From a virus (lineage: Duplodnaviria; Caudoviricetes), in IMG/VR virus record IMGVR_UViG_3300042868_009047: a DNA stretch of 64,000 nucleotides; one strand, written 5' to 3'. Of this stretch, positions 2,829-59,600 are shown one piece after another (within the stretch, counting starts at the first letter, position 1; every line of letters begins with the position of its first letter). Position numbers and translations under genes: made by a program. The notes under the pieces are model-generated. The model did not search any database, was not told the DNA's origin, and saw only the letters and a program-made list of their open reading frames with translations.

Positions 2829-3920
2829 ATGAGAATAAATCCAATCGAAAAGCAAAAAATATACAAACAAGCTAAACACAGACTTGGTGCCCCTATTAGA
2901 AAGATTCAATTAGAGGATGAGCAAATGGACTCTCTTCTTGAAATCGCAACAGAAGATTATGTTGAGTTTATTAACAACTGGTTAATTGAACACCAATGGC
3001 CAAGTTTGATTGGTTTAAGTGTTAGTGAGGCTGACCTAACAAGGGCTTTTATTTATAGAAGCTTTGATTTGGTTACTCAATATACCTATTCTTACTCAAA
3101 AATCGTTGGTTTAGGTGCTGGTGAAGGTGGTTATGTACTTAAAAAAGACTATGTTGAATTATCTAAAGGACAACAAATATATGAAATTCCAGCGAATAGG
3201 GAAATAAATGAGGTGTTATGGTTTACCCCAGCTTCTTTAGATCAATCTGTAATTGACCCATTCTTAGGTGTTTGGAATAATCAATTTGGTGCCGAATACA
3301 TGGGTTTAGGTAGTTATTATATTCTACCAGCCTTTGATATCTTAATGAGAACAACGGATAGAAACCTTAAAAATAGAATGATTCGCTCTGAGTTAATATA
3401 TAAGATTACGAATGCACCTGATGGTAAAAAATATCTTCATTTAATGAATACCCCAGGTGGTAAGTTTGATTTTAGGGGTTCAATGCTTGACCAGGGTAAA
3501 TGTTGGTATTGGTATTACGATATTAACCCATTAATTAAAGACGATTGTTTAGCAAAAAACAAAGATATTATTAAATCACCTTCTGATGTTCCGTTGGATA
3601 ATATTTCATTTGATGATTTAAATGATCCAGCTAAAGTTTGGATCAGAAGATATTTTATTGCATTATGTAAAGAAACTTTAGGTAGGGTAAGAGGTACATT
3701 TGGTGGTAAAATACCAGTTCCAGATGCAAATATGGAAATTGAATACCAATCGCTTTTATCAGAAGGTAAAGATGAGATGGTTACACTTAAAAAAGAATTA
3801 GAGGATAGAATGTTTAAATTAAATCCAATAGAAATTCTTAAGAGAATGTCTTCTGAGGCTGAAGAAATTAATAAAGCCCTTAAATTTAGAGCATTCCAAA
3901 AACCAATTAAGATTATATAA
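2829..3920 (+). CDS. Neck/head-completion protein (T4 gp13-like)
   Basis: N-terminus HRLGAPIRKIQLEDEQMDSLL and C-terminal ALCKETLGRVRG match the gp13 pattern. Start moved to ATG 2829. Confidence 0.7.
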   Translation: MRINPIEKQKIYKQAKHRLGAPIRKIQLEDEQMDSLLEIATEDYVEFINNWLIEHQWPSLIGLSVSEADLTRAFIYRSFDLVTQYTYSYSKIVGLGAGEGGYVLKKDYVELSKGQQIYEIPANREINEVLWFTPASLDQSVIDPFLGVWNNQFGAEYMGLGSYYILPAFDILMRTTDRNLKNRMIRSELIYKITNAPDGKKYLHLMNTPGGKFDFRGSMLDQGKCWYWYYDINPLIKDDCLAKNKDIIKSPSDVPLDNISFDDLNDPAKVWIRRYFIALCKETLGRVRGTFGGKIPVPDANMEIEYQSLLSEGKDEMVTLKKELEDRMFKLNPIEILKRMSSEAEEINKALKFRAFQKPIKII

Positions 3921-5620
3921 TGTTTTATACAGCCCTAGATAATAGTGATTATTTTGATTTAGTTGTCACAAAAGATTGTCGTGATTTTTATCGTAATTAT
4001 AGTGAATGTAATTTAATAAACATTAATATTACTGAAGATCTATGTTCAACCCCTGGGAGTGTTCAAACAGAAGAAGTTGAATTAAAGAATATAACCCTTA
4101 CTGGTTATGATAACTTTTTTATACATAATGGTGAAATATCTAACATTAATAATTTCACTGGTGATACAATAGGGTATACGGTTAATCAAGATATTGTTAT
4201 TGATGTCGATAAAAATTTAACATATGTGGTCGAGACTGGGGATACATTCTGTTTTCATGAAATATCAGGTTATAGTGGTAATTATTGTTATGAGATCGAT
4301 CATTTAAACCTTGATAACGGTGTTTACTACAACAAATTAAACGGTGGTTTTTACCAAGGCTTTTATAAAATATTTGGTGAGAACGTTGAATGGTATCCAG
4401 CCAGAGCAAAAATGGGTTGGACCGTTGACATGGTTGTTCATTTTCCTATGGACGTAACAGGTTCAACTGGAACTAGTGGTACTTCAGGAACATCTGGTTC
4501 TTCTGGATCTAACGGTACTAATGGAACTATTGGTACTTCAGGAACATCTGGTTCTTCTGGGTCTAACGGTTCTTCAGGATCTAACGGTACTAATGGCACT
4601 TCAGGAACATCTGGTTCTTCTGGATCATCAGGGAGTTGTGTAACTTTGAACGAGGTTTACCCAAATAATAGTGGTTTTATTTTTTATTTAGGAACAAGAG
4701 CTGAAAATAAATTTGCTGATAAGACTGACATTGAGATACAAAAATTTGAAAATAACTATGAAATCTTACCGTTAAACACAACAAACTTATTCACCTATAA
4801 TAATTTAATAAGTTTAGATGGTTTAACCAATTACATTGGTTATTTTAACTATTATAATGGTTTAATGTATACTGGTAGAAATTACACAACAGATTCTCAA
4901 CCTTTACAATATCATCAGGAATATAGCGATTTAACTTATAATGCATTTGGTATAAGAGTTACCAATGATGGTAGAATTGGTTATAGAACAATATACCCAA
5001 CTGACATATGTTACACTGGGGCGACACAAGAAGTAAGCGGTATAACAAACAACTCATTTATAATGGAACCCGATGATCCTTGTGTTAGTCATACAAAAGC
5101 TCTTATTATTACAAAATACTTTACCATTGAAGAATGTTATACAAAAAAACCAGTTATCAATGTTAATGAAAAAAAGTTTTTAAATATAACTGGAGTGTTT
5201 GAAAGGGATTTTGGATATGGTGATAATTGCCAGTTAAAATACGGTGACTATAAAAAAGGAACCTTCTCAATTTACCTAAACGGATTTCTAGTTTTTAGAA
5301 ATAAAAAATTTGTTGAGGTTATACCACATGAATTAGATACCGATGCGAAATACCAAGAAGGTGTACCGTTTAATATTTCATTTGGTGGTGGTACCCAAAG
5401 TTTAATTGATGCTGTTGTGTTTGATAAGACAAAAGTACTTGGTACCGTTTTAGAAAGATTTTTTGCTGGAACATTTTTAGGTGGTGTTAAATCATTTAAA
5501 ATGTATTGTGTACCTTTGTATACTGTTGAAGTTAAAAAAGAACTTAGAAGTATTGCAGGTATATATAACTTACCAATAATAAACGGTGGAAGACAAATAT
5601 TTATAAAAAACCTATTCTAA
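3920..5620 (+). CDS. Putative virion structural protein (LamG/concanavalin-like C-terminus) with internal Gly-X-Y insert
   Basis: C-terminal FAGTFLGGVKSFKMYCVPLYTVEV resembles the end of LamG-like domains. Coupled to the neck gene by a TAATG overlap. Confidence 0.45.
   Translation: MFYTALDNSDYFDLVVTKDCRDFYRNYSECNLININITEDLCSTPGSVQTEEVELKNITLTGYDNFFIHNGEISNINNFTGDTIGYTVNQDIVIDVDKNLTYVVETGDTFCFHEISGYSGNYCYEIDHLNLDNGVYYNKLNGGFYQGFYKIFGENVEWYPARAKMGWTVDMVVHFPMDVTGSTGTSGTSGTSGSSGSNGTNGTIGTSGTSGSSGSNGSSGSNGTNGTSGTSGSSGSSGSCVTLNEVYPNNSGFIFYLGTRAENKFADKTDIEIQKFENNYEILPLNTTNLFTYNNLISLDGLTNYIGYFNYYNGLMYTGRNYTTDSQPLQYHQEYSDLTYNAFGIRVTNDGRIGYRTIYPTDICYTGATQEVSGITNNSFIMEPDDPCVSHTKALIITKYFTIEECYTKKPVINVNEKKFLNITGVFERDFGYGDNCQLKYGDYKKGTFSIYLNGFLVFRNKKFVEVIPHELDTDAKYQEGVPFNISFGGGTQSLIDAVVFDKTKVLGTVLERFFAGTFLGGVKSFKMYCVPLYTVEVKKELRSIAGIYNLPIINGGRQIFIKNLF
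4460..4636 (+). repeat. In-frame (Gly-X-Y)~19 Ser/Thr/Asn repeat
   Basis: Translates as GST GTS GTS GTS GSS GSN GTN GTI GTS GTS GSS GSN GSS GSN GTN GTS GTS GSS GSS GS. Confidence 0.95.
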
Positions 5621-6075: not shown

Positions 6076-9000
6076 ATGGCCGAATACAAAATTTCCCTTG
6101 AAGAAATAGAAAAATTTTTAAATGGACACAATGATGAGAAATACATTGTGAATGTTGAGTACGATGCCGAAACTAATCTAATCCATAAGGTTAAACAAGA
6201 TCCTGAAAGAGGTAACTATGTCGAAACAGAACCGTTACTCGCTTTCATGTGGATTAAAAATCTTAATAAGATTAAGGAATTAACCAATTTTTATGGTAAT
6301 AGCGATTCAAAGATTAAATCTGCTAGACAAAGATTTGGTATTGAAATTAAATCTTTAGGTGGTGATCACCCAAAACTACTTGAGGGTTATAGATACTTGG
6401 TCACTTGTAATCAAGGTAATAAAAGAATGTTAGATTTCTTCAGAGAAGGTGGCATCTATGTCTATGACACAAGAAACGATATTAGATCACACTTTTTAAT
6501 GATATCACCTGTTGAACAATACTTTATACACACTGGTAAACGTTTGTTTAAAGGGTATGAAGAATATGATGATATTCATAAATTTATATTTGACTTAGAG
6601 ACAACAGGTTTAGATCCACATATCAATAGGATATTTTTGATTGGTGTCTATACTAATAAAGGTGTTAAAGAAATTATACCAGTTGAGGATGATGATGAAT
6701 CTGAAAGACAAGCAATTACAAAATTCTTCGAGGTTATTAATGACATTAAACCAACAATTATTGCTGGTTATAATAGCGCTAACTTTGACTGGGATTTCTT
6801 TTTTGTTCGTTGTCAAAAACTTGGATTAAATATTCAAGATATAGCTATAACACTTAAACCAGGTGAGCTTATCCAAAGAAAAGAAAAAAGCGTACTTAAA
6901 CTTGGTAATGAGGTGGAAGAATATACACAAACTAATATGTTTGGTTATAGTGTTATTGACATTATCCACTCAGCTAGGCGTGCACAAGCAATTGATTCAA
7001 GTATGAAGTCAGTTGGTTTAAAGTATGTTTGTAAGTATAACAAGATTGCCAAAAAGAATCGTGTTTACATTGTTGGTGATAAAATTGGTAATACATGGTA
7101 CTCAAAGGATAAATTCTATTTTGACGATAGAACTGGTTCGTACACTAAAACAAAACCAGCTTTAGAGTTTATGGATTACATTCGTAGAGAAGACATCCAA
7201 GCTAATCCAGATAAAATATTTGTTTTTGGTGATAACATGACGAGGCAAGGACTTGGTGGTCAAGCAAAAGAAATGCGTGGTGAACCAAATGTTATCGGTG
7301 TTGTAACAAAACATTCACCAGAATCAACACCTGAATCTTATTTTAATGACAAAGATTTTGATTCCATTAAAAAATATATTGATACTGATATTAATCAGAT
7401 AATTGAAAAGATTAAAGAAGGTAAAACTATTGTGTTCCCTAAAATGGGTATTGGTACAGGTTTGGCTCAGTTAGATATGAGAGCACCAAAAACTTTTAAA
7501 TATCTAATAGATTTATTACGTGCATTACGTGATTATATTAACACCTTCCAAGAAGTTGACGGTAAATATATTGTTGAGCGTTACTTGGTTGATGATTTAT
7601 GGGAAACCATGGAAGTTGATGCCGTTTATAATCAATCATCATTCTTGTTGGCTAAATTGGTACCGACAACGTACCAAAGGGTATCGACCATGGGTACAGC
7701 TGGGTTATGGAAGTTATTGATGATGACATATTCATTTGAAAATGATTTAGCGATACCTGTATCAGATGTTAAAAGAGATTACACGGGTGGTTTATCAAGG
7801 TTATTTAAAGTTGGATACTCAACCACTTTAAGAAAGATGGACTACAATTCACTATACCCAGCTATTCAATTGGCTCATGATGTATTTCCGAGTGTTGATG
7901 TTAACGGTGCAATGAAATCGATGTTAAAGTATTTCCACACTGAACGTTTTAACGCTAAGAAATTATCTGACAAGTACAAAAAAGAGGGTAATTACCAATT
8001 AGCTGACAAATATAAACGTAAACAGTTACCACTTAAGATCTTTATTAACTCGATGTTCGGTGCCCTTGGAGCACCAATGGCTTTCCAATGGGCTGAAATT
8101 GATGTCAGTGAACGTATTACATGTACGGCAAGACAATACCTTAGACTGATGGTTACATTTTTTGTTAAACGTGGTTACACACCTTTGGTACTTGATACGG
8201 ATGGTGTGAACTTTATGGCCCCTAAAAACGGTGAGCACTATACATATATTGGTAAAGGATTAAACGATGAAGTTGAAGCTGGTAAAGAATATACAGGTGT
8301 TAAAGCTATAGTCGCTGAATTTAACGATACGTACATGCGTGGTGAGATGGGCCTTGGTTTGGATGGTATTTGGCCAGCAACCATAAACCTATCAAGAAAA
8401 AACTACGCTTTATTAGAAGATGATGGATCAATTAGTTTAACTGGTAATAGTATCAAGTCAAAAGCTATGCCTGTTTATATTGAGGAGTTTTTAGCTAAAG
8501 GCATGAAAATGTTATTAAACGGCCATGGTTATGATTTTGTTCAATATTACTATGAATACGCTGAAAAGGTTTATAATAAAGAGATACCGTTAGCAAAAAT
8601 TGCCACAAAATCTAGAGTTAAGAAATCAATAAACGCTTACATAAATCGTGGTGGTGATAAAAATGGCAGACAATTGGCTAAACAAGCTCACATGGAGTTA
8701 GCGATTAAACATGATATTGATGTTAATCTTGGTGATACAATTTATTACGTTAATAACGGTAAAACAAAATCGCATGGTGATGCTCAAGAAGATAAACACG
8801 GTGAAATGTACGCAACATTAGTACCAAATGATATTATTGAGAACCAACCAGATTATATTGGTGAATATAACGTACCAAAATATTTGGAAGCCTTAAATAA
8901 AAAGGTTGAACCGCTATTAGTTGCTTTCTCTCTTGATGTTAGAGATAAAATTTTAATTAAAAAATCTGGTGAAAGAACAATGTTCTTAAGATCTGAATTA

Positions 9001-9177
9001 GATTTAGTAAATAACCAGCCAACCGATATTGAAGACCAAGACACCTTGGAAGAATTTTTCACACCATCCCCAATGGAAAAAGAATTCTGGGCTAAAATGA
9101 AATATGAATCTGATTATTGGTTTTCAGATGAAATAAGATTTAAAATACCTGGTCTAGATGAAGAATTTACGGTTTAG
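6076..9177 (+). CDS. polB: DNA polymerase family B with inserted ~128-aa domain
   Basis: ExoI FDLETTG, ExoII YNSANFD, ExoIII YLVDD; polymerase motifs DYNSLYP, KIFINSMFG, LDTDG. Confidence 0.95.
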   Translation: MAEYKISLEEIEKFLNGHNDEKYIVNVEYDAETNLIHKVKQDPERGNYVETEPLLAFMWIKNLNKIKELTNFYGNSDSKIKSARQRFGIEIKSLGGDHPKLLEGYRYLVTCNQGNKRMLDFFREGGIYVYDTRNDIRSHFLMISPVEQYFIHTGKRLFKGYEEYDDIHKFIFDLETTGLDPHINRIFLIGVYTNKGVKEIIPVEDDDESERQAITKFFEVINDIKPTIIAGYNSANFDWDFFFVRCQKLGLNIQDIAITLKPGELIQRKEKSVLKLGNEVEEYTQTNMFGYSVIDIIHSARRAQAIDSSMKSVGLKYVCKYNKIAKKNRVYIVGDKIGNTWYSKDKFYFDDRTGSYTKTKPALEFMDYIRREDIQANPDKIFVFGDNMTRQGLGGQAKEMRGEPNVIGVVTKHSPESTPESYFNDKDFDSIKKYIDTDINQIIEKIKEGKTIVFPKMGIGTGLAQLDMRAPKTFKYLIDLLRALRDYINTFQEVDGKYIVERYLVDDLWETMEVDAVYNQSSFLLAKLVPTTYQRVSTMGTAGLWKLLMMTYSFENDLAIPVSDVKRDYTGGLSRLFKVGYSTTLRKMDYNSLYPAIQLAHDVFPSVDVNGAMKSMLKYFHTERFNAKKLSDKYKKEGNYQLADKYKRKQLPLKIFINSMFGALGAPMAFQWAEIDVSERITCTARQYLRLMVTFFVKRGYTPLVLDTDGVNFMAPKNGEHYTYIGKGLNDEVEAGKEYTGVKAIVAEFNDTYMRGEMGLGLDGIWPATINLSRKNYALLEDDGSISLTGNSIKSKAMPVYIEEFLAKGMKMLLNGHGYDFVQYYYEYAEKVYNKEIPLAKIATKSRVKKSINAYINRGGDKNGRQLAKQAHMELAIKHDIDVNLGDTIYYVNNGKTKSHGDAQEDKHGEMYATLVPNDIIENQPDYIGEYNVPKYLEALNKKVEPLLVAFSLDVRDKILIKKSGERTMFLRSELDLVNNQPTDIEDQDTLEEFFTPSPMEKEFWAKMKYESDYWFSDEIRFKIPGLDEEFTV

Positions 9178-9794: not shown

Positions 9795-10281
9795 AAATTC
9801 AAAATTATATGAGGTAAATTCAAAACTTATCGGTATGACTTATGACATACCAGATGAGGTTTTGATTCATATTAAAAATACATTAAAAAAATTTAAAGAC
9901 CACAAAACAGTTAAAGGTTATAAAAGAGCTAATTTTTTGGTGAATAACCCAAATCAACCGTATGTTAATTTAGCTATGATTAAATCATATTTTGATAACG
10001 TAAATAAAGATGAGGTTAATCCAGTTGAATACGCTTTAAACGGTGGTGATGTATTAAATGTTTGGGTTCAGGATCTCATAAAAAGAGAAAAAGAAAGAGT
10101 TCAGGGTAATAAAGTTGCTAGGACAAATGCTGGTATGAACGGTCAGTTTAGAAAAGATTCTGAAGGGGATGATTTTAATACCGATTTACCAAATAACGTA
10201 ATGGATACGCCAGACATAATGTTTAATAGCGCATTACTTGAAGATATAACTAGAATAAAAAAATTAATAAATAAAATATAA
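9787..10281 (+). CDS. Hypothetical phage protein
   Basis: 164-aa ORF ending LLEDITRIKKLINKI. Confidence 0.7.
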   Translation: MDKNSKLYEVNSKLIGMTYDIPDEVLIHIKNTLKKFKDHKTVKGYKRANFLVNNPNQPYVNLAMIKSYFDNVNKDEVNPVEYALNGGDVLNVWVQDLIKREKERVQGNKVARTNAGMNGQFRKDSEGDDFNTDLPNNVMDTPDIMFNSALLEDITRIKKLINKI

Positions 10282-10283
10282 TC

Positions 10284-10547
10284 ATGGCAGATAACATTTT
10301 AAAAGTACCAGCATCCACACAATTAAGACAGGTTGCTGATCAAGAACTAAACGGTAAATTAATACCAGTTAATGAGTATAAACCAAACTCTTTTGAGTAT
10401 AGCTCAACAAACCCTAACGCACTTAGTGGTGACGCTAAGGGTAAAGGTGATATCGGTAACACCACTGATGTTGAAGAAAGATCAAAATTGGTTGCTGTTA
10501 ACAATTATAAAGACAGTAATACATATCCAGATTCATCTGTAGTTTAA
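10284..10547 (+). CDS. Hypothetical phage protein
   Basis: 87-aa ORF tightly packed in the operon. Confidence 0.65.
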   Translation: MADNILKVPASTQLRQVADQELNGKLIPVNEYKPNSFEYSSTNPNALSGDAKGKGDIGNTTDVEERSKLVAVNNYKDSNTYPDSSVV

Positions 10548-10559
10548 TTTTTTTTATTT

Positions 10560-11195
10560 ATGCTTATTATTGAAAACACAAGTGGTAACAAACTCGACAT
10601 ATTAAAATACGCAATTGAAAATAAATATTCAATTGTATTTTGGTATAGAGGTGTTAAACTAGGTGACCCAAATGAAAAAGGTTATACACGCCAAAATTAT
10701 AGACGTGTTGAACCCGTGGCTTTGGGTAAAAGTGATAAAACAGGTAAAGACATGTTAAGAGCTTTTCAATATAATGGTGCGACAAATACTAAAAACCAAG
10801 TTTATAAAACATTTATTGTAGATGAAATAAAAGATGGTAGTATACAAATGGTTTACGATTCAACAGGTAAGCAATTAAGAACCTTTGATACTAATAACCA
10901 AAGATATACAGATAAAAACGGAAATAGCGCTGAATTTAGGTCAAATGGTAATGATTTAAAAATGGCTTCTGGTAGATCAGAAAAATATGTAGATACTAGC
11001 AAACCAGCTGGACCAACAGACCCTAAATACGCTAACATGAATTATAAAGAACCAGAAATAAAAAATAAACCAGAACAAAAACCAGTGGAACCCCAACCTC
11101 AAGGACAAAATGTCCCTGAGAACCCAAATGACAAAGAGGTTGTAACTGAACATAGTTCTGGATTCTTAAAATGGATATATAACATATATGGATAA
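10560..11195 (+). CDS. WYL-like domain protein
   Basis: AIENKYSIVFWY...RRVEPVALG...LRAFQ...YKTFIVDEI follows the WYL pattern (R.VEP..L, W/Y..F..D.I). Confidence 0.55.
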   Translation: MLIIENTSGNKLDILKYAIENKYSIVFWYRGVKLGDPNEKGYTRQNYRRVEPVALGKSDKTGKDMLRAFQYNGATNTKNQVYKTFIVDEIKDGSIQMVYDSTGKQLRTFDTNNQRYTDKNGNSAEFRSNGNDLKMASGRSEKYVDTSKPAGPTDPKYANMNYKEPEIKNKPEQKPVEPQPQGQNVPENPNDKEVVTEHSSGFLKWIYNIYG

Positions 11196-11796
11196 TCAAG
11201 ATAAAGCAGCGTTATTAGCACAAGGAATTGCTAAAGCAAGAATAGTAATGGAAAAAGTTGAAGCCAATACTGGCGGTAAAATGGCACAAGATAGAGGTAT
11301 GTCGGGCATGAATAGAGAAGTTTATTCAGACAACTACCAAGAACGTGAACCAGAATATTTAACCGAAGAGCAAGTTGCAGCTAGAACAAGAAATGCTGGT
11401 GGTGGTGTACCTAAAAACACTATGAAAAACCTGTCATCATCAAAAATGCCTAAAGAAATACTACAGTCGTTCATCGATAATCCGATTGTTGACCCAACGG
11501 TACCAGTTGGTATGGATAATTTAATGGAGCAAATCGCTAAAGCACAACCTAAAATTAGACAAATTGATGAAGTTGTACAACCAAGATCAGTTGCACCAGC
11601 TCAATCAGCCCCAGCTTTAACAATGGATAGGGAGTTAATTGAATACATTATCAAAAAAACCGTTGAGACTGTTCTTGAAGAACAAGCTAAAAAAACTAGT
11701 ATTGATGAGAATTTTCAAATTAAAATAGGTGACAAAATATTTGGTGGTAAATTAAATGTTTTAAAAGAAAATAATAATAAATCAGTTAAAAAGTAA
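11188..11796 (+). CDS. Hypothetical phage protein
   Basis: 202-aa ORF overlapping the upstream gene. Confidence 0.7.
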   Translation: MDNQDKAALLAQGIAKARIVMEKVEANTGGKMAQDRGMSGMNREVYSDNYQEREPEYLTEEQVAARTRNAGGGVPKNTMKNLSSSKMPKEILQSFIDNPIVDPTVPVGMDNLMEQIAKAQPKIRQIDEVVQPRSVAPAQSAPALTMDRELIEYIIKKTVETVLEEQAKKTSIDENFQIKIGDKIFGGKLNVLKENNNKSVKK

Positions 11797-11800
11797 AATT

Positions 11801-11962
11801 ATGAAAAAAGAACAAGTATTAGGAATCGTAAGACACGTATTGACGTTTGTTGGCGGTATTTTAGTAGCAAAAGGTTTGGCGACAGATGTTTTGTCTAATG
11901 AATTAATTGGCGCTGCCATGACATTAGTTGGTGGTATATGGTCAATCACCTCAAAAAAATAA
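11801..11962 (+). CDS. Small two-TM protein, Pam3-gp28-like putative holin (absent from the ORF track)
   Basis: Hand translation MKKEQVLGIVRHVLTFVGGILVAKGLATDVLSNELIGAAMTLVGGIWSITSKK* (53 aa), with a GIVRH.LT..GG motif. Confidence 0.7.
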   Translation: MKKEQVLGIVRHVLTFVGGILVAKGLATDVLSNELIGAAMTLVGGIWSITSKK

Positions 11963-11982
11963 CTCTTTAAATAAATAAACAA

Positions 11983-12171
11983 ATGAGTAATAATATAATA
12001 AAATTTTGTAAAAACAAATGCTGTCCAGTTATTGAGGTTCAAGAAAACGCAATTGTATTGGGTGATAAAGAAGGACCAGAAGGAATAACAACATGGACTA
12101 AAACCCAATTTGCTGACTTTGTTGAAGCGGCTAAAGAAGGTAAATTTGACGAAATTGTTAACGAATCTTAA
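11983..12171 (+). CDS. DUF397-like small protein
   Basis: C.PVIEV...V.LGDKEGPEG..TWT..QFADFVEAAKEGKFD parallels the DUF397 pattern CVEVA...RDSK.P.G..L.F....W.AF...VK.GEF. Confidence 0.5.
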   Translation: MSNNIIKFCKNKCCPVIEVQENAIVLGDKEGPEGITTWTKTQFADFVEAAKEGKFDEIVNES

Positions 12172-12202
12172 AATTAAGGTTCATACTAAGAAAAAATAAA
12201 TT

Positions 12203-12232
12203 ATGGGGAATTTAATATTCCCCATTTTTTTT
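12203..12232 (+). terminator. Intrinsic terminator
   Basis: ATGGGGAAT-ttaat-ATTCCCCAT followed by a T tract. Confidence 0.85.
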
Positions 12233-12293
12233 GTACTTTTGTTTGATTTTTAAACCTTTTTTCCTATTATTATGGAAACATAATATAAAACCT

Positions 12294-13514
12294 ATGAGTA
12301 AAATTAATATATTAGTACAACCAAACGATAGAGCTGGTTCAGGTAAATATCGATGTGTAGACCCACATGTAACACTACAGAATAATAACGCGGATGATTT
12401 TTTTGTTGAGATTAATGAAAACGTTAATTTTAATGATGATGGTTACCTAAAAAAATTCCAGTTGTTCTTTTTCCATAGAGCCCCAGGTGGTAATTATTTA
12501 CAAGGTGCTGAAATCATCAAAAAAATTAAATCATTTGGTGGTAAAGTTATTATTGACTTAGATGATCACTGGGATTTAGATCCATCACATGGTTTATATC
12601 AAACAGCAAAAAAAAATAATATACCAGGCCACACGATTAATATCGTAAAAGAAGCTGATTTAGTAACCGTGTCAACGCATTTTTTACAAAAAGAGGTTTT
12701 AAAATATAACAAAAAATGTGTTGTTTTGGCTAACGCAATAAACCCAAATGAAACACAATTTAAACCAAAACCAAGTGAGTCAGATAGGTTAAGATTTGGC
12801 TGGTTAGGTGGCTCATCACACGCTAAAGATATCGAGTTATTAAAAGGTGTACCTCAAAGGTCAAATGAGTACGGGGATAAGATGCAAATTGTATTATGTG
12901 GTTATGACACAAGAGGTACTGTTAGGGCTCAAAACCCTGAAACAGGTGAAATGATGGAAAGACAAATGCAACCTGTTGAAACAACTTGGTTTATGTATGA
13001 AATATACCTAACCGATCATTTTAAAACGATTAAAGATCAGGAATATATTAAACATTTGTTGAAATTTGAGCAAGACCTAAATTACGATGATACAAATATG
13101 CCATATAGAAGAATATGGACTAAGCCAATTGATACATACGCAAAGGGTTATAATGAATTTGATGTGGCTTTAGCACCGTTAAATGATAGTTCTTTTAATA
13201 AATATAAATCCCAGTTAAAGGTAATTGAGGCTGGGTTCCATAAAAAAGCTATAATAGCTCAAAATTATGGGCCTTACACCATTGATTTGGTTTCTGCAAT
13301 TGAAAAGGGTGGCGGTTTTAATTCAAAAGGTAACTCTTTATTAGTTGAATCAAGTAAAAACCACAAACAATGGAGTCAACACATTAAAAGGTTAATTGAT
13401 AACCCAAATCTTGTTGAAGATCTTGGTGAAAAACTATATGAGACCGTTAAAGACAGGTATGATATAAATCACGTAACAAAATTAAGAGCTGAAATTTATA
13501 AAACATTAATATAA
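12294..13514 (+). CDS. GT-B fold glycosyltransferase
   Basis: GWLGGSSH, FDVALAPL...FNKYKSQLKVIEAG. Start moved to ATG 12294 (MSKINILV). Confidence 0.75.
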   Translation: MSKINILVQPNDRAGSGKYRCVDPHVTLQNNNADDFFVEINENVNFNDDGYLKKFQLFFFHRAPGGNYLQGAEIIKKIKSFGGKVIIDLDDHWDLDPSHGLYQTAKKNNIPGHTINIVKEADLVTVSTHFLQKEVLKYNKKCVVLANAINPNETQFKPKPSESDRLRFGWLGGSSHAKDIELLKGVPQRSNEYGDKMQIVLCGYDTRGTVRAQNPETGEMMERQMQPVETTWFMYEIYLTDHFKTIKDQEYIKHLLKFEQDLNYDDTNMPYRRIWTKPIDTYAKGYNEFDVALAPLNDSSFNKYKSQLKVIEAGFHKKAIIAQNYGPYTIDLVSAIEKGGGFNSKGNSLLVESSKNHKQWSQHIKRLIDNPNLVEDLGEKLYETVKDRYDINHVTKLRAEIYKTLI

Positions 13515-50628: not shown

Positions 50629-53600
50629 TTATTTTTTTAAATCTTGGATTTCTTTGTCAAGATCTTTTATTGCTTCAATAAGTAGACCAACCAAGTTTGA
50701 GTAAGCTACCCCTAAGTATCCGTCAGATTCTCTTGTTGATATAACCTCTGGGATAACTTTTTGAACTTCTTGTGCAATAACACCCATTTTCAATGATTTG
50801 TCCTCAACGTCATTTCTCGTATAGTTAACACCTCTCATACTTCTAACTTTATTCAAAGCATCGCTAATTGTAACAACATTATCCTTAACTCTTTCATCTG
50901 AGAATGCAATAACATCAGCAGAAGCGTAGATAGTACCACTAACATCCAATGTATATGATGGTGAGGCATTGTTAATACCAAGTCTGTTACTAGTTGTATC
51001 AACTTTCAAGAAGCTTACACTTTGTACTTGTGTTGCACTTGTTGTTCTAACCAAGTAGTCAGGTTGGTTTGTGAATGAACCACCACTGATACCAGATGTA
51101 CCATTAATAGATTGACCACTTGTTCCAGCAACACCTGTAGTACCATTTGTACCGTTAGCGCCTGATAAACCACCTGCACCGTTGTTACCATTGTTACCAG
51201 CTGCACCATTTGTACCGTTAGAACCATTTACACCTGATAAACCACCTGCACCGTTGTTACCGTTGTTACCAGCTGCACCATTTGTACCGTTAGAACCATT
51301 TACACCTGATAAACCACCTGCACCGTTGTTACCATTGTTACCAGCAACACCTGAAGTACCGTTTGCACCGTTGTTACCGTTGTTACCAGCTGCACCATTT
51401 GTACCATTTGAGCCGTTAACACCCGAAACACCACTATTACCATTACCACCGTTAAGACCATTAGCACCACCAGTACCTGTAGAACCATTAGTTCCACTTA
51501 CACCTGAGACACCACCAAGACCAACACCACCATTGTTACCGTTAGTACCGTTTGAACCATTTGAACCTGATAGACCTGATAAACCAGAGTTACCATTGTT
51601 ACCGTTGTTACCTGAAGTTCCGTTAGTACCAGTTGAACCTGAAGAACCAGAAAGTTGACTTATACCTGAAGGAACAGGTAAACCGTTTGTACCACCAGTG
51701 CCCGATGAACCTGAAGAACCACTCACCGCTGAATTACCATTACCACCAGCATTACCATTATTACCAGTTGTACCATTTGTACCTGTTGATCCTGATAGGC
51801 CTGAATTACCACTGTTACCATTAGCACCGTTGTTACCATTTGTACCAGCAGTTCCGTTAGAACCTGAAATACCACTTAAACCACTTACACCATTTCCACC
51901 ACTAGCACCTGATGTACCAGCTGTTCCGTTAGAACCTGATAGACCAGAATTACCTGAGTTACCGTTAGCACCATTATTACCGTTTGTACCATTTGTACCA
52001 GTCGATCCTGAAGAACCGCTCAATCTTGATAAACCAATAGCACCAGCATTACCTGTAGTACCGCTTGTACCTGTAGATCCAGAAGAACCAGATAAACCAC
52101 TTACACCATTTCCAGCACTAGCACCTGATGTACCAGCTGTTCCGTTAGAACCTGAAATACCACTTAAACCACTTACACCATTAGCACCATTGTTACCGTT
52201 AGTACCGTTTGATCCATTGGTCCCACTTAATCCAGAGTTACCTGAGTTACCGCTGTTACCATTGTTACCTGAAGTTCCGTTAGTACCAGTTGAACCTGAA
52301 GAACCACTCAATCTTGATAAACCAATAGTACCAGCATTACCTGAAGTACCATTTGTACCTGAAGATCCTGAAGAACCAGAAAGTTGACTTATACCTGAAG
52401 GAACAGGTAAACCGTTTGTACCACCAGTGCCCGATGAACCTGAAGAACCACTCACCGCTGAATTACCATTACCACCAGCATTACCTGTAGTACCTGTAGA
52501 ACCTGTTGACCCTGAAGTACCTGATAGGCCTGAATTACCGTTTCCACCAGCATTACCATTTGTACCATTTGAACCATTTGAACCTGATAAACCTGATAAA
52601 CCACTAACACCATTTCCACCACTAGCACCTGATGTACCAGCTGTTCCGTTAGAACCCGATAAACCAGATAAACCACTTACACCATTAGCACCATTGTTAC
52701 CATTTGTACCTGTAGATCCATTTGTTCCACTTAATCCAGAGTTACCGCTGTTACCGTTGTTACCTGTAGTTCCGTTAGTACCAGTTGATCCTGAAGATCC
52801 ACTATTAGCTGAAGCACCGATGTTACCAGCATTACCATTTGTACCGTTTGTACCTGTTGATCCTGAAGAACCAGAAAGTTGACTTATACCTGAAGGAACA
52901 GGTAAACCGTTTGTACCAGCAGTACCAGTCGAACCAGAGGTACCACTCACCGCTGAGTTACCATTAGCACCAGCATTACCTGTAGTACCATTTGTACCTG
53001 TTGATCCTGAAGAACCACTATTAGCACTTGCACCAATGTTACCAGCATTACCTGAAGTACCATTAGAACCTGAAGTTGCTGAAGAACCACTTAATCGTGA
53101 TGAACCTGAAGCACCCGCAGTACCTGAAGAACCAGAAGAACCAGAAGTTCCTGAAGAACCACCCAAACCACTATTACCAGCAGTTCCTGAAGAACCACTT
53201 GTTCCTGAAAGAGCGCTAATACCATTTAATCCAGCCACACCACCTGTACCGTTAGAACCAGTAGAACCAGATGAACCACTTAAAGCCGAAGCTCCGATGT
53301 TACCCGCATTACCCGATGTACCGTTAGAACCTGTTGAACCAGCAGAACCGCTTAAACCAGATGTTCCGCTAAATCCTGATTGACCTCTAAACCCTGTTGT
53401 TCCTGTTGTTCCTTCCGTACCTGAAGAACCTGAAGAACCAGCTAATCCTGAAGTCGCTGAAGAACCAGAAGTTCCAGAAGAACCTGACAATCCACTTAAA
53501 CCACTCGTACCATTTGTACCAGTTGATCCTGAAGACGCTGAACTACCAGAGTTAGCTGATAAACCATTACCACCGATTATACCTGTAGTACCATTTGTAC

Positions 53601-56600
53601 CAGTTGATCCTGAAGATCCACTATTAGCTGAAGCACCGATGTTACCAGCATTACCATTTGTACCGTTTGTACCAGTTGATCCTGAAGAACCTGATAGAGT
53701 ACTTATACCAGAACCAACAGCTAAACCATTTGTACCAGCAGTACCAGTTGATCCTGAAGAACCTGAAGATGCTGAAGAACCACTTAATTGTGATAAACCT
53801 GAGTTACCAGCAGTTCCGTTTGTACCAGTTGAACCTGAAGAACCAGAAGTTCCTGAAGAACCTGAGTTATTACTAGCACCATTGTTACCAACCGTACCAA
53901 TTGTACCTGAAGTTGCTGAAGTACCTGAAGTACCCGCAAAACCTGCTATTCTAGAAATACCGTCAGTACCAGCAGTACCAGTACTACCTGAACTACCTGA
54001 AGTACCACTTGATCTACTCAATGAAGACGCACCATCAGTACCATTTGTTCCAGAAGAACCAGAAGTTCCTGAAGAACCTGACGATCTACTTAAACCTGAT
54101 GTACCATTTGTACCAGTTGATCCTGAAGACGCTGAACTACCAGAGTTAGCTGATAAACCATTACCACCGATTATACCTGTAGTACCATTTGTACCAGTCG
54201 ATCCTGAAGACCCGCTTAATGCACTAGCACCTATATTTCCAGCATTACCTGAAGTACCATTAGAACCAGATGTGCCTGATGAACCTGAGTTATTACTCGC
54301 ACCATTATTACCCGCTGTACCAGTTGAACCTGAAGAACCAGCGGTTCCCGAACTTCTACTTAAACCAGACTGACCATCTGTACCATTTGTTCCTGAAGAA
54401 CCAGAAGATCCAGAAGAACCTGACAATCTTGATAAACCAGCGGTACCAGCGGTACCTGTAGAACCGCTAGATGCTGAAGAACCACTTAATTGTGATAAAC
54501 CTGAGTTACCAGCAGTTCCGTTTGTACCAGTTGACCCTGAACTACCAGATGTTCCTGAAGATCTACTTAAACTAGATTGACCATCGGTACCATTTGTTCC
54601 AGAAGAACCGCTTGTTCCAGAAGAACCAGAAGACCTACTTAAACCAGCAGTACCATTTGTTCCTGAAGAACCACTTGAACCGCTTGACGCACTTGATCCA
54701 CTATTTGAACTTAAACCTGATGTACCATTCGTACCAGTTGAACCTGAAGAACCTGAAGTTCCTGAGCTTCTACTTAAAGCAGACTGACCATCCGTACCAT
54801 TTGTTCCAGAAGAACCTGAAGTTCCTGAAGAACCTGAAGATCTACTTAAACCTGAAGTACCATTTGTTCCTGAAGAACCAGAAGAACCTGAAGAAGCAGA
54901 AGACCCAGACAATTGTGACAAACCTGAGTTACCTGCTGTACCATTTGTACCAGTTGAACCTGAAGTTGCAGAGCTACCTGAAGTTGAACTTAAACCACTA
55001 TTACCAGCATTACCTGATGTTCCATTTGTACCTGTAGAACCACTTGAACCTGAAGTTCCAGCTGAACCAGAACTTCTACTTAAACCTGATTGACCGTCTG
55101 TACCAGAAGTACCAGAGGTTCCAGCTGTTGCTGAAGATCCGCTTAATCTTGATAAACCTGATGTACCAACCGTACCATTTGTTCCTGAAGACCCCGAAGA
55201 TGCGCTAGAACCACTTAACTGAGATAAACCTGAGTTACCAGCGGTTCCGTTTGTACCAGTAGAACCTGAAGTAGCAGAGCTACCAGAAGATGCTGAAGCA
55301 CCTGATAAACCAGATGTACCGTTAGTACCAGTTGATCCTGAAGAACCAGCAGTTCCTGATGACCCAGAACTTCTACTTAATCCAGAAAGACCATCTGTAC
55401 CTGACGTACCTGTTGATCCAGAACTACCTGAAGTTCCAGAAGTATCACTTAATGCTGATTGGCCATCAGTTCCAGATGTACCTGAAGTTCCAGCTGTTGC
55501 TGAAGACCCACTTAATCTACTCGAACCGTTTGTACCAGCAGTACCAGTTGTTCCCGATGAACCTGAAGAAGCAGATGAACCACTTAATTGAGACAATCCA
55601 GAATTACCAGCTGTTCCGTTTGTTCCCGTAGAACCAGAGGTTGCTGATGAACCTGAAGATGCTGACGCACCCGATACACCCGCAGTACCGTCAGTACCTT
55701 TAGAACCACTTGAACCAGATGTTCCTGAAGTTCCTGATGTAACAGATATACCACTATTTGCGGCAACACCTGATGTACCAACTGTACCCGAAGTAGCTGA
55801 GCTACCAGAAGTTCCAGCTGAACCACTATTATTACTTGAACCAACTGTACCATTTGTACCCGTAGAACCTGAAGAACCACTTGTGCCTGAACTTCTACTT
55901 AAAGCAGATGCTCCGTCAGTACCTGAACTACCTGTTGATCCTGAACTACCTGAAGTTCCTGAAGTATCACTTAATGCTGACTGACCATCTGTACCAGAAG
56001 TACCAGATGTACCAGATGTTGCTGAAGACCCAGACAATCTGCCTAACCCAGATGTACCAATTGTACCCGAAGTAGCTGAGCTACCAGAAGTCGCTGAAGA
56101 ACCAGAGTTAGCTGAAGCACCGTTTGTACCAACTGTTCCAGTTGATCCTGAACTACCTGAAGTACCACTTGATCTACTTAGTGATGATTGGCCATCAGTA
56201 CCATTTGTTCCAGAAGAACCAGATGTTCCAGAAGAACCTGACGATCTACTTAAACCTGAAGTACCATTTGTTCCTGAAGAACCAGAAGATGCGCTTGAAC
56301 CACTTAACTGAGATAAACCCGAGTTACCAGCTGTTCCGTTTGAGCCAGATGTACCTGATGTAGCCGAACTACCAGCTGATCCTGAAGAACCACTTAATTG
56401 TGATAAACCGTTTGTACCCGCAGTACCTGAAGTAGCAGAAGAACCTGATGTAGCTGAGCTACCACTATTCGCTGAAGCACCATTTGTACCGTTCGTACCA
56501 GTACTACCAGAAGAACCAGATGTTCCTGAAGACCTACTCAATGAAGACGCACCATCCGTACCATTTGTTCCAGAAGAACCAGAAGTTCCTGAAGAACCTG

Positions 56601-59600
56601 ACGATCTACTTAAACCGCTTGTTCCGTTTGTTCCTGAAGAACCTGAAGATGCTGAAGACCCAGACAATTGTGACAAACCTGAGTTACCAGCTGTACCACT
56701 TGAACCAGAAGTTCCTGAAGTTGCTGAAGATCCCGAAGAACCACTTAACGCTGAAGAACCAACTGTACCTGCTGAACCTGAAGTTGCTGATGTACCAGAA
56801 GTTCCTGAAGAACCACTATTTGCACTAGCACCATTTGTACCAGTGGTACCAGTTGATCCTGAACTACCACTTGTACCTGAACTTCTACTTAAAGCAGAAG
56901 CACCATCTGTACCATTTGTTCCTGAAGACCCAGAAGTTCCAGAAGAACCCGAAGATCTACTCAAACCAGAAGTACCGTTAGTACCACTTGATCCTGAAGT
57001 TGCCGAAGAACCACTTAATTGTGATAAACCTGAAGCACCCGCAGTACCGTTTGTACCTGTAGATCCGCTTGATCCTGATGTTCCAGCTGAACCAGAACTT
57101 CTACTTAAACCTGATTGACCATCAGTTCCTGAAGTACCAGTCGATCCTGAAGAACCAGATGTACCTGAAGTATCACTTAATGCTGATTGGCCATCAGTAC
57201 CTGAGGTACCCGATGTACCAGCTGTTGCTGAAGAACCTGACAATCTTGATGAACCGTTTGTACCAGCGGTACCAGTTGTTCCTGAAGAACCACTTGATGC
57301 GCTTGACCCACTTAATTGTGACAATCCCGATAAACCAGCAGTACCATTTGTACCCGTAGAACCTGAAGACGCTGAAGTACCGCTCGATCCACTATTTGCG
57401 GATTGACCACTTGTACCAGCGCTACCTGAAGATGCTGATGAACCTGATGAACCTGATGTTCCTGAAGTTGCACTTGATCCAGCACTACCTGAAGATCCGC
57501 TTAACTGAGACAATCCTGATGTACCAACCGTTCCTGATGTTGCTGAAGAGCCTGATGTAGCTGAGCTACCTGAGTTAGCTGAAGCACCTGAAGTTCCGTT
57601 AGAACCTGTAGATCCTGAAGAACCAGATGTTCCGCTTGATCTACTTAATGATGATTGGCCATCAGTTCCTGAAGTACCAGTTGAACCTGATGAACCAGAA
57701 GTTCCTGAAGTATCACTTAACGCTGATTGACCGTCCGTACCTGAAGTACCTGACGTTCCAGCTGTTGCTGAAGACCCACTTAATCTACCCAATCCTGAGG
57801 TACCATTTGTACCTGAAGTTGCGGAAGATCCTGAAGTTGCGGAAGAACCACTATTTGCTGAAGCACCTGAAGTTCCGTTAGAACCAGTCGATCCAGAAGA
57901 ACCCGATGTTGCTGAAGAACCAGCAGAACCACTTAACGCTGAAGAACCTGCTGTTCCTGAAGTCCCAGAAGAACCTGCGCTACCAGCTGAACCACTTAAC
58001 GCTGAAGAACCAACTGTACCAGACGTACCAGAAGATGCTGATGAACCTGAAGTTCCAGCAGAACCTGAAAGTTGACTTAAACCTGAAGTACCGATTGTAC
58101 CTGAAGTAGCTGAGCTACCTGAAGTAGCTGAAGAACCGCTATTTGCGCTAGCACCGTTAGTACCGTTTGTACCTGTACTACCTGAACTACCTGATGTACC
58201 AGAACTTCTACTTAATGAAGACTGACCATCTGTACCATTTGTACCTGAAGAACCCGAAGTTCCTGAAGAACCTGAAGATCTACTCAAACCTGAAGTACCA
58301 TTTGTTCCTGAAGAACCGCTAGATGCTGAAGAACCGCTTAATTGAGATAATCCTGAGTTACCAGCTGTTCCATTTGAACCGCTTGTACCAGAAGTCGCTG
58401 AAGAACCAGCAGATCCACTTGAACCACTTAATGAACTTAAACCAGATGTACCCGCAGTACCACTTGTAGCAGAGCTACCAGCTGTTGCTGAAGAACCTGA
58501 ATTAGCAGATGCTCCGTTTGTACCGTTTGTACCCGTAGAACCACTTGAACCAGATGTACCAGAACTTCTACTTAACGCTGATGCACCATCCGTACCCGCT
58601 GATCCTGAAGAACCAGAAGAACCTGATGTACCACTTGTTGCTGAAGTACCCGCTGAGCCTGAGCTACCACTTAATTGTGATACTCCAGATGTTCCAGCTG
58701 TTCCTGATGTTGCGGAACTACCAGCTGTTGCTGAAGAACCACTATTTGAACTTAATCCTGACGTACCGTTTGTTCCAGTTGATCCTGAAGAACCAGCAGT
58801 TCCTGATGAACCTGAAGATCTACTCAAACCAGATTGTCCGTCAGTTCCTGAAGTTCCCGTAGAACCTGATGATCCAGAAGTTCCTGATGTATCACTTAAA
58901 GCTGACTGACCATCTGTACCAGATGTACCAGAGGTTCCAGCTGTTGCTGAAGATCCGCTTAATCTACCCAATCCTGAGGTACCCGCAGTACCACTTGTAG
59001 CTGAACTACCAGAAGTTGCTGAAGAACCTGAATTTGCACTTGCACCTGAAGTACCAGTAGAACCTGTTGAACCACTTGATGCAGATGTTCCTGAAGAACC
59101 ACTATTTGAAGATAAACCAGATGTACCGTTTGTACCAGTTGATCCTGAAGAACCACTAGAACCTGACGTACCGCTTGATTTACTTAATGCTGAAGCTCCA
59201 TCAGTACCAGATGTACCACTTGAACCTGAAGAACCAGATGTACCACTTGTTGCAGATGTTCCAGCAGAACCAGAAGAACCTGATAATTGAGACAATCCAG
59301 ATGTACCAACTGTACCTGAAGTGGCAGATGAACCAGAGGTTGCTGATGAACCGCTATTTGCTGAAGCGCCATTTGTACCGTTTGATCCAGTTGAACCACT
59401 TGAACCAGATGTTCCTGAAGATCTACTTAACGATGATTGACCATCAGTTCCTGAAGTTCCTGTTGATCCTGAAGAACCACTTGTTCCAGAAGTATCGCTT
59501 AAAGCTGATTGGCCATCTGTACCTGAAGTACCTGATGTACCAGCCGTTGCTGAAGAACCTGATAATCTACCTAAACCTGAAGTACCGTTTGTACCTGAAG

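Follow-up and report, generated by a model that had tools for sequence, protein, structure and literature searches.

A DUF7831 domain inserted in the proofreading domain of a jumbo-phage family-B DNA polymerase: a candidate eraser of ADP-ribose-type DNA adducts

We have analysed a 64,000-nucleotide stretch of DNA from a virus of the Caudoviricetes (IMG/VR record IMGVR_UViG_3300042868_009047; hereafter the window), in which a family-B DNA polymerase gene carries an additional domain inside the region that encodes its 3'-5' proofreading exonuclease. Judged from its sequence, the inserted block (residues 362-489 of the polymerase; nucleotides 7159-7542, plus strand) is one intact DUF7831 domain (PF25176), and it interrupts a surface loop of the exonuclease domain, ~13-25 residues before the ExoIII helix. 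We tentatively propose that the insert provides the polymerase with a built-in eraser, which would remove ADP-ribose-type adducts from DNA in cis, a reading in which we infer macrodomain homology, ligand binding, hydrolysis, a DNA substrate, and a role against DarT toxins.

Residues 364-479 (nucleotides 7165-7512) match PF25176 with an E-value of 3.7e-44 and a score of 149.8 bits, against a cut-off of 27 bits, over positions 2-117 of the 118 in the profile, and the insert also matches phrog_2072 (E = 4e-15), a PHROG family whose function is unannotated. The first-pass annotation, made from the letters alone, had described a ~128-residue block between ExoII and ExoIII and quoted strings from it, all of which are exact, and the kinship it proposed with small stand-alone phage proteins is borne out by the Pfam match and by 373 stand-alone homologues of 110-160 residues that share 41-59% identity with the insert. 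In a family profile that we built from 41 stand-alone homologues, 16 columns are invariant; the insert holds all of these as well as the near-invariant columns, and its 20-residue motif string equals the family consensus (FGDN, GxGGQ, R..E.N, TK, P, GxGTGL, P). Four conserved elements follow one another on the plus strand, with conserved positions given here in domain numbering: a strand with the FGDN motif (residues 382-387, nucleotides 7219-7236), whose F23, G24, D25, and N26 are invariant in the 41 homologues and in more than 60 polymerase clusters; a glycine-rich loop and helix, GLGGQAKEMRGEPN (residues 392-405, nucleotides 7249-7290; G31, G34, Q35, R40, and N44 invariant, G33 and E42 at least 90% conserved); a strand, VIGVVTK (nucleotides 7291-7311), which ends at K412, the proposed catalytic lysine (K51, invariant); and a strand with a second glycine-rich loop, VFPKMGIGTGLAQL (residues 453-466, nucleotides 7432-7473; G97, G101, and L102 invariant, P94, G99, and T100 at least 90% conserved).

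The alignment of polymerase homologues shows that the block is a true insertion. Between two conserved anchor columns, the window protein has 138 residues versus 22 in relatives of ~940 residues, which amounts to a net gain of ~116 residues, i.e., one domain; the ~940-residue relatives lack the insert, and the block is not a regular part of all related polymerases. Alignment with KOD polymerase places it in the loop directly ahead of the ExoIII helix. An independent DNA contig (run X12, 1528 nucleotides) spans both junctions with 0 differences, and contigs from lake metatranscriptomes likewise read through the two junctions, without any joint that would take the insert out, bearing in mind that RNA libraries can also contain DNA. 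Many studies of lake water have yielded metagenomes in which this sequence turns up again. Because independent DNA and RNA-library contigs run unbroken across the junctions, and because of this recurrence across lake metagenomes, an assembly artefact, an intron, and an intein are excluded. An intron or intein had been considered and was rejected, as the window polymerase has neither an intein Pfam match nor intein motifs, and no contig from the DNA or RNA libraries has a joint that skips the insert. Inteins and other insertions do occur among the homologues: P0173 (1392 residues) carries an intein elsewhere (PF14528 LAGLIDADG_3, PF14890 Intein_splicing) together with a weakened DUF7831 (45 bits), and P0203 and P0205 (1122-1153 residues) have additional, different insertions in the N-terminal region and the thumb region (alignment columns 180-240 and 1030-1060).

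The gene that hosts the insert (nucleotides 6076-9177, plus strand; 1033 residues in the list of open reading frames) matches Pfam DNA_pol_B_exo1, RNase_H_2, and DNA_pol_B, as well as phrog_262 (DNA polymerase), and its motifs identify the product as a family-B DNA polymerase with a proofreading exonuclease and a complete motif set. On the exonuclease side, these are ExoI, FDLETTG (residues 172-178, nucleotides 6589-6609; D173 and E175 invariant in the homologue alignment); ExoII, YNSANFD (residues 232-238, nucleotides 6769-6789; D238 invariant), aligned with YNGDNFD of KOD polymerase; and ExoIII, RYLVDD (residues 502-507, nucleotides 7579-7596; Y503 and D507 invariant), aligned with ARYSMED of KOD polymerase and 13 residues past the inserted block. 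Polymerase motifs A (DYNSLYP, residues 589-595), B (KIFINSMFGAL, 654-664), and C (DTDG, 706-711) lie within nucleotides 7840-8208 in invariant columns, and neither the exonuclease nor the polymerase catalytic positions vary in an alignment of 17 homologues. The nearest solved structures are archaeal polymerases of the KOD/Tgo type, and the nearest polymerases of cultured phages share 24-26% identity with the window enzyme.

PF25176 is found in ~80 polymerase clusters, and all 20 family motif residues are retained in more than 60 clusters with 49-95% identity to the window enzyme. The ratio of nonsynonymous to synonymous substitution rates (dN/dS) between the window and its closest IMG/VR relative (L001) is 0.062 for the insert and 0.046 for the rest of the gene. 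In a sister subclade (P0128-P0137; loci L003, L005, and L007, match at 10001-13100), the motifs are rewritten, with FGDN replaced by Y-S/D-E/D-N (YSEN or YDEN), GGGQ by GG-E/Q-Q (GGEQ or GGQQ), and GTGL by G-T/N-D/G-S/E (GTDS or GNGE), while R, E, N, and K are retained. With dS saturated, dN/dS against this subclade is ~0.3 for the insert and 0.08-0.09 for the rest, and inside the subclade 0.074 and 0.057, respectively. These sequences suggest a changed yet still selected domain, and the rewritten motifs may reflect altered specificity instead of decay. Decayed or half-length inserts occur in P0185-7, P0201, and P0203-6, and further lineages have no insert at all. On a FastTree tree of the polymerase alignment with the insert removed, the insert states require at least nine changes, and lineages with an absent, altered, or decayed insert are interspersed among intact ones; a group without the insert adjoins an intact group, the position of the root being undefined. 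Such scattered absence, alteration, and decay is typical of an accessory, arms-race function, and the pattern, as read from these alignments, points to a functional accessory module, repeatedly retuned or missing. A stand-alone DUF7831 was not found in the contigs of five phages without the insert, which are incomplete records (46-75% complete) and prove little; with none of the five carrying such a copy, we see no sign of a separate gene replacing the insert.

What the domain resembles can be approached through its predicted structure, and here the first-pass annotation had proposed a macrodomain. The macro fold is a three-layer alpha/beta/alpha arrangement with a six-stranded sheet in the order 1-5-6-2-4-3. 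The AlphaFold2 model of the insert (predicted local distance difference test, pLDDT, 93.8) has three main helices and 4-5 strands. Compared with 48,161 chains in an unbiased search by VIA-align, it retrieves annotated macrodomains in 11 of the top 13 matches, among them Poa1p (score 6.1), DarG (5.3), and DarTG (5.3), and alphavirus and coronavirus macrodomains are also listed; the two other rows are 2afc, an uncharacterised Bacteroides protein that ranks first at 6.5, and CbiL. Pfam Macro_2 (PF14519) was considered as a home for the 2afc/Poa1 type and dropped after matching in only 3 of 151 genomes. An AFDB cluster named "Macro domain-containing protein" superposes on the insert model with a template-modelling (TM) score of 0.62 and a probability of 0.99, and an A1S_2505-like cluster, all members of which have ADP-ribosylglycohydrolase PF03747, does so with a TM score of 0.60; the nearest named cluster by language model is likewise the "A1S_2505 family" (0.89). 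The predicted fold comes closest to the small macrodomains of the TARG1/DarG/Poa1 type.

The order of the conserved motifs points the same way. FGDN-x4-GLGGQ follows the strand at domain positions 19-26, and P-x2-GIGTGL follows the strand at 90-94 and precedes a helix, so that sequence and model agree with two features of macrodomains, a glycine-rich (GxG) loop behind the second core strand and another phosphate-binding loop ahead of a helix. The catalytic lysine of TARG1 is K84, the counterpart of DarG K80. In DarG, K80 (the lysine of FPTK) is catalytic, N22 is the next most important residue, and the loop at 117-122 grasps ADP-ribose (PMC5179494). A local hhalign alignment with DarG, itself non-significant, puts K412 (VVTK, consensus IPTK) on the FPTK lysine and GIGTG on the PPLGxGNGG loop, and keeps the long helix that separates the two in register; the earlier likening of GIGTGLA to the diphosphate-binding loop of DarG/Poa1 macrodomains is therefore matched in position, though not at significance. 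From motif order, and not from hhalign, we infer that N387 is the counterpart of DarG N22 (FGDN-x4-GLGG beside VNTVN-x5-GKG). The insert would then present four strictly conserved elements in the order of the DarG functional site: N387 for N22, GLGG for the GxG loop, K412 for K80, and GIGTG for the loop that grasps ADP-ribose.

Beyond the polymerase, a profile search returned 2,589 clusters of the family at 50% identity, mainly proteins of 110-160 residues from phages, giant viruses (Hyperionvirus, Tupanvirus, Yasminevirus), and bacteria. The 54 multidomain members include fusions to DUF488-N3a (5), DUF4326 (4), and NADAR (4), and other partners are cpYpsA SLOG, MazG-like, MutL_C, endonuclease VII, and UvrB_inter; ESM-Atlas clusters contain DUF4326-DUF7831 and YAcAr-DUF7831 fusions. 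DUF7831 is also embedded in giant phage proteins of 2000-6700 residues, three of which were examined and have no other Pfam domain. The fusions to NADAR, SLOG, DUF4326, and DUF488 place DUF7831 in the NAD/ADP-ribose conflict network. In the main texts of their papers, Iyer, Burroughs, Aravind, and colleagues link DUF4326 with domains of the SLOG, Macro, and NADAR types and with replication components (PMC7824862, PMC9503650). The idea that their "Macro" partner of DUF4326 is DUF7831 itself was weakened by the canonical Macro-NADAR-SLOG fusions present in other phages, given which DUF7831 need not be that partner; our literature search found no paper in which DUF7831 is named.

Genomes of the Pyrinomonadaceae (Acidobacteriota) contain, in several copies each, a cassette of a MobL relaxase, a YAcAr SLOG protein, DUF7831, a large DUF488-N3a protein, RNase H, and a ribbon-helix-helix (RHH)-like protein (within L086-L165: L110:6001-8802, L104:8884-9564, L133:4938-5315, L088:3151-5649, and L107:5260-11394), and some also have a YpsA-DUF7831-DUF488 fusion of 1500-2000 residues. 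The cassette resembles cargo that a conjugative or integrative element would carry.

DarT toxins, which ADP-ribosylate DNA, have recently been recognised as a defence against phages. Known phage answers to them comprise the binders AdfA and AdfB, the NADAR enzyme AdfN, the macrodomain AdfM, and polymerase mutations, by which phages escape DarTG (PMC11825919, PMC13309987). NADAR enzymes strip ADP-ribose from DNA and act as phage anti-DarT1 factors (PMC11825919), and AdfM, a stand-alone phage macrodomain that counters DarT2, was presented in a 2026 report as the first macrodomain Adf (PMC13309987). The PADLOC model of DarG matches in 62 of 401 sampled Bacteroidota genomes (G011-G415), ~40 of the matches being full length, so DarTG defence appears common, at least in a phylum that may not be that of the host. 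Given these known answers and the frequency of DarG, an eraser embedded in the polymerase is a coherent reading. The DUF7831 domain would bind an ADP-ribose-type (ribose-phosphate) adduct and then cleave it off; the substrate would be an adduct on DNA met by the replisome, for example DarT-type ADP-ribosylated bases on a single-stranded DNA (ssDNA) template; and the replication block would be cleared in cis. A DNA adduct is the likeliest substrate because the domain is built into a polymerase, and an anti-DarT role is plausible. We lean slightly towards ADP-ribose or a nucleotide derivative as the ligand on the basis of the fusion context, which in itself shows no DNA substrate. In its fullest form, in which the proofreading domain of a replicative polymerase would house a DNA de-ADP-ribosylase acting in cis and the replisome would erase DarT-type or related ribosyl adducts from the template on meeting them, the proposal strikes us as rather unlikely.

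Several results weigh against an ADP-ribose eraser, and most of these concern the macrodomain assignment. With Foldseek, no PDB entry or Swiss-Prot model matches at E ≤ 0.001; the rows that head its list, below significance, are tyrosine phosphatases, CbiL, and PanC. The model has 4-5 strands only, compared with six in the macro core. The polymerase has no match to Pfam macro (PF01661) at E ≤ 1, PADLOC yields no DarG match to the insert domain, and NCBIfam yields no family for it at E ≤ 10; the insert therefore does not match the curated A1S_2505 family model, and the earlier label "A1S_2505-like" stands for a resemblance, by language-model score and by TM scores of 0.60-0.64. Using macrodomain alignments assembled from Bacteroidota genomes (31 MacroD-type and 30 DarG sequences), hhalign scored 17.2 against DarG (P = 0.044), a value reached by 3 of 60 block-shuffles and not significant; against the MacroD-type sequences it was uninformative, the reversed control equalling the forward score. 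As to function, stand-alone DUF7831 genes have no consistent neighbour in cultured phages or in 66 viral contigs: they adjoin exonuclease/recombination genes in a phage of Rhizobium, rIIB in phages of Caulobacter, genes for a metallophosphatase, HicA, and a CCA-adding enzyme in phage RcXuper, and genes for MT-A70, dCMP deaminase, and CHAP proteins in the viral contigs. No DarT, ADP-ribosyltransferase (ART), Macro, NADAR, or other ADP-ribose gene is among the top families of the window, and the main text of Iyer et al. 2022 holds that phage ADP-ribose-processing domains mostly act on soluble derivatives and not on macromolecular adducts (PMC9503650). A PDB sequence search with the domain and with the 41-sequence profile gave chance-level rows only (triosephosphate isomerase, E = 0.02, through the GTGLA string). 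Set against the VIA-align ranking, 11 of 13 in favour of macrodomains, and the AFDB macro cluster, the lack of any significant Foldseek or profile match leaves the macrodomain reading partly supported and the macro-like fold weakly supported, and we regard macro ancestry of DUF7831 as about an even call.

The view of Iyer et al. leads to the strongest alternative, namely that DUF7831 acts on a soluble small molecule, either a signal or toxin derived from ADP-ribose, such as a cyclic ADP-ribose (cADPR) variant or ADP-ribose-1''-phosphate (ADPr-1''-phosphate), or a nucleotide, and that the insertion merely secures early co-expression or localisation to the replication site, DNA adducts not being its substrate. 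We hold this to be improbable, though it deserves to be kept in mind. If co-expression were all that was gained, placing the module within a folded catalytic domain would be an expensive route to it, and the insert is kept, with every motif intact, across the more than 60 polymerase clusters. The fusion partners of the family include the DNA enzymes MutL_C, endonuclease VII, and UvrB_inter, its NADAR partners are now known to work on DNA, and the bacterial cassettes lie next to a relaxase and to RNase H, on elements of the conjugative type, which reach the cell as ssDNA.

The phosphatases among the Foldseek rows recall a second alternative, in which the insert is not a macrodomain and would instead be another kind of Rossmann-like or phosphatase-like enzyme, one that clears blocks from DNA ends (a 3'-phosphate or other 3' adduct) for the adjacent proofreading site. 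End cleaning seems to us quite improbable: the loop P-K-M-G-I-G-T-G-L-A contains no Cys, Asp, or Arg and has neither Cys-X5-Arg nor an Asp nucleophile, the residue preceding GIGTG is variable (M, Q, D, N, or A), and phosphatases score 4.2-4.5 versus 5.3-6.7 for macrodomains in both VIA rankings. In its fusions, moreover, DUF7831 adjoins the rhodanese-phosphatase-type DUF488 and DUF4326, and so would be a distinct family duplicating their role. Membership of the rhodanese/tyrosine-phosphatase group itself was rejected, there being no Cys-X5-Arg loop or equivalent and the fold scores lying below those of macrodomains.

That the insert is non-catalytic (a ligand sensor, a docking point for another protein of the replisome or of the host, or the tolerated remnant of a mobile domain) draws on the lineages in which it is altered, decayed, or half-length in an otherwise intact polymerase, on the macrodomains that are readers and not enzymes, and on the relatives that function with neither an insert nor a stand-alone copy in the contigs searched, but we consider it very unlikely, because the identity of 20 motif residues (polar N, Q, R, E, N, and K among them) across stand-alone proteins and polymerases that are 49% identical overall, together with an insert dN/dS of 0.06, is typical of an active site and not of a scaffold, and for the window copy these same two observations exclude a pure relic.

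Our literature search found no paper describing DUF7831 inside the exonuclease domain of a family-B polymerase; within that literature the architecture appears to be new, and the first-pass annotation likewise knew of no description of it, whereas stand-alone phage anti-DarT enzymes of the macro (AdfM) and NADAR (AdfN) types are already known. If the eraser reading is correct, a conserved candidate eraser in the polymerase would connect the separate-protein route (AdfA, AdfB, AdfN, and AdfM) and the polymerase-mutation route, accessory repair or counter-defence chemistry would prove graftable into the proofreading domain of a replicase, and, in the fullest form of the proposal, such a "self-cleaning" polymerase would represent a new class of anti-defence inside an essential enzyme. 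The altered active sites of the sister lineages would then be retargeted specificities of an arms race, and DUF7831, whose ~2,600 clusters at 50% identity come from phages, giant viruses, and conjugative elements, would gain its first functional handle. The strict conservation in most lineages, set beside alteration, decay, and absence in others, offers natural controls. Should the domain not act on ADP-ribose, it would still be a clean case of a polymerase domain insertion with a clearly selected activity.

The window derives from a T4-like jumbo phage, uncultivated and of freshwater origin. It encodes a gp23-type capsid protein, a gp20-type portal, a T4-type terminase, a prohead protease, PhoH, a dUTPase, an SNF2 helicase, and many glycosyltransferases, and from related IMG/VR contigs of 140-206 kb, rated 47-69% complete, we estimate a genome of ~300 kb. 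Just upstream of the polymerase region, a 566-residue protein (nucleotides 3920-5620, plus strand) has the collagen-like repeat run GTSGTSGSSGSNG at its middle. From ~12000 to 50600 (plus strand), sugar-modifying genes, unusually many for a phage, lie among the T4-type head genes; they encode WbsX, glycosyltransferases of the RgpF, GT1, GT2, and GT9 types, a Nol-type carbamoyltransferase, and an FkbM methyltransferase. A giant open reading frame of more than 4456 codons (nucleotides 50629-63999, minus strand) runs off the end of the window. Collagen triple-helix repeats (Pfam Collagen, E = 3e-276, 18 stretches) make up almost all of it, and a Peptidase_S74 intramolecular chaperone forms its C-terminal part; the frame probably encodes an enormous fibre protein and explains the jump in G+C from ~0.31 to ~0.45 and the reversed GC skew.

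Compared with known systems, the insert is closest to the stand-alone DUF7831/phrog_2072 proteins, such as gp152 of Sinorhizobium phage phiM9 (YP_009189537.1), with which it shares a full-length match and every invariant residue of the family; it differs in its setting, within a replicative polymerase's exonuclease domain, and is neither free-standing nor a terminal fusion. The polyvalent and multidomain proteins that phages and conjugative elements encode in the SLOG/NADAR/DUF4326/DUF488 network resemble it in that DUF7831 occurs in such fusions and in proteins of 2000-6700 residues, although a network domain inside a family-B exonuclease domain is not described in the main text of the papers on that network, to which the search was confined (PMC7824862, PMC9503650). 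Relative to the DarG (DarG2) and TARG1 macrodomains (PDB 5M31, 5M3I, and 4J5Q), which strip ADP-ribose from thymidine in ssDNA, the insert is ~30-40 residues shorter and its similarity in sequence and profile is not significant; according to the model, DUF7831 is apparently a cut-down version of the TARG1/DarG/Poa1 type that lacks the beta-hairpin after the first helix and the final strand, and the DarT-binding C-terminal domain of DarG is not present. AdfM (the PhiKZ gp104 family) and AdfN (the T4 30.3 family) have the job that we propose here, the erasure of DarT marks from phage DNA, which lets replication go on (PMC13309987, PMC11825919), and DUF7831 is also fused to NADAR. Each of the two is a protein in its own right, belongs clearly to the Macro or the NADAR family, and has been shown to be active, whereas the insert is built into the polymerase, is of uncertain membership, and has a proposed activity. 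A precedent for a family-B polymerase that checks the template ahead of synthesis is found in the archaeal enzymes, which are also the closest solved relatives of the window polymerase. These recognise template uracil by read-ahead through a pocket in the N-terminal domain that senses and stalls only, whereas in the window polymerase the candidate function would reside in an inserted domain.

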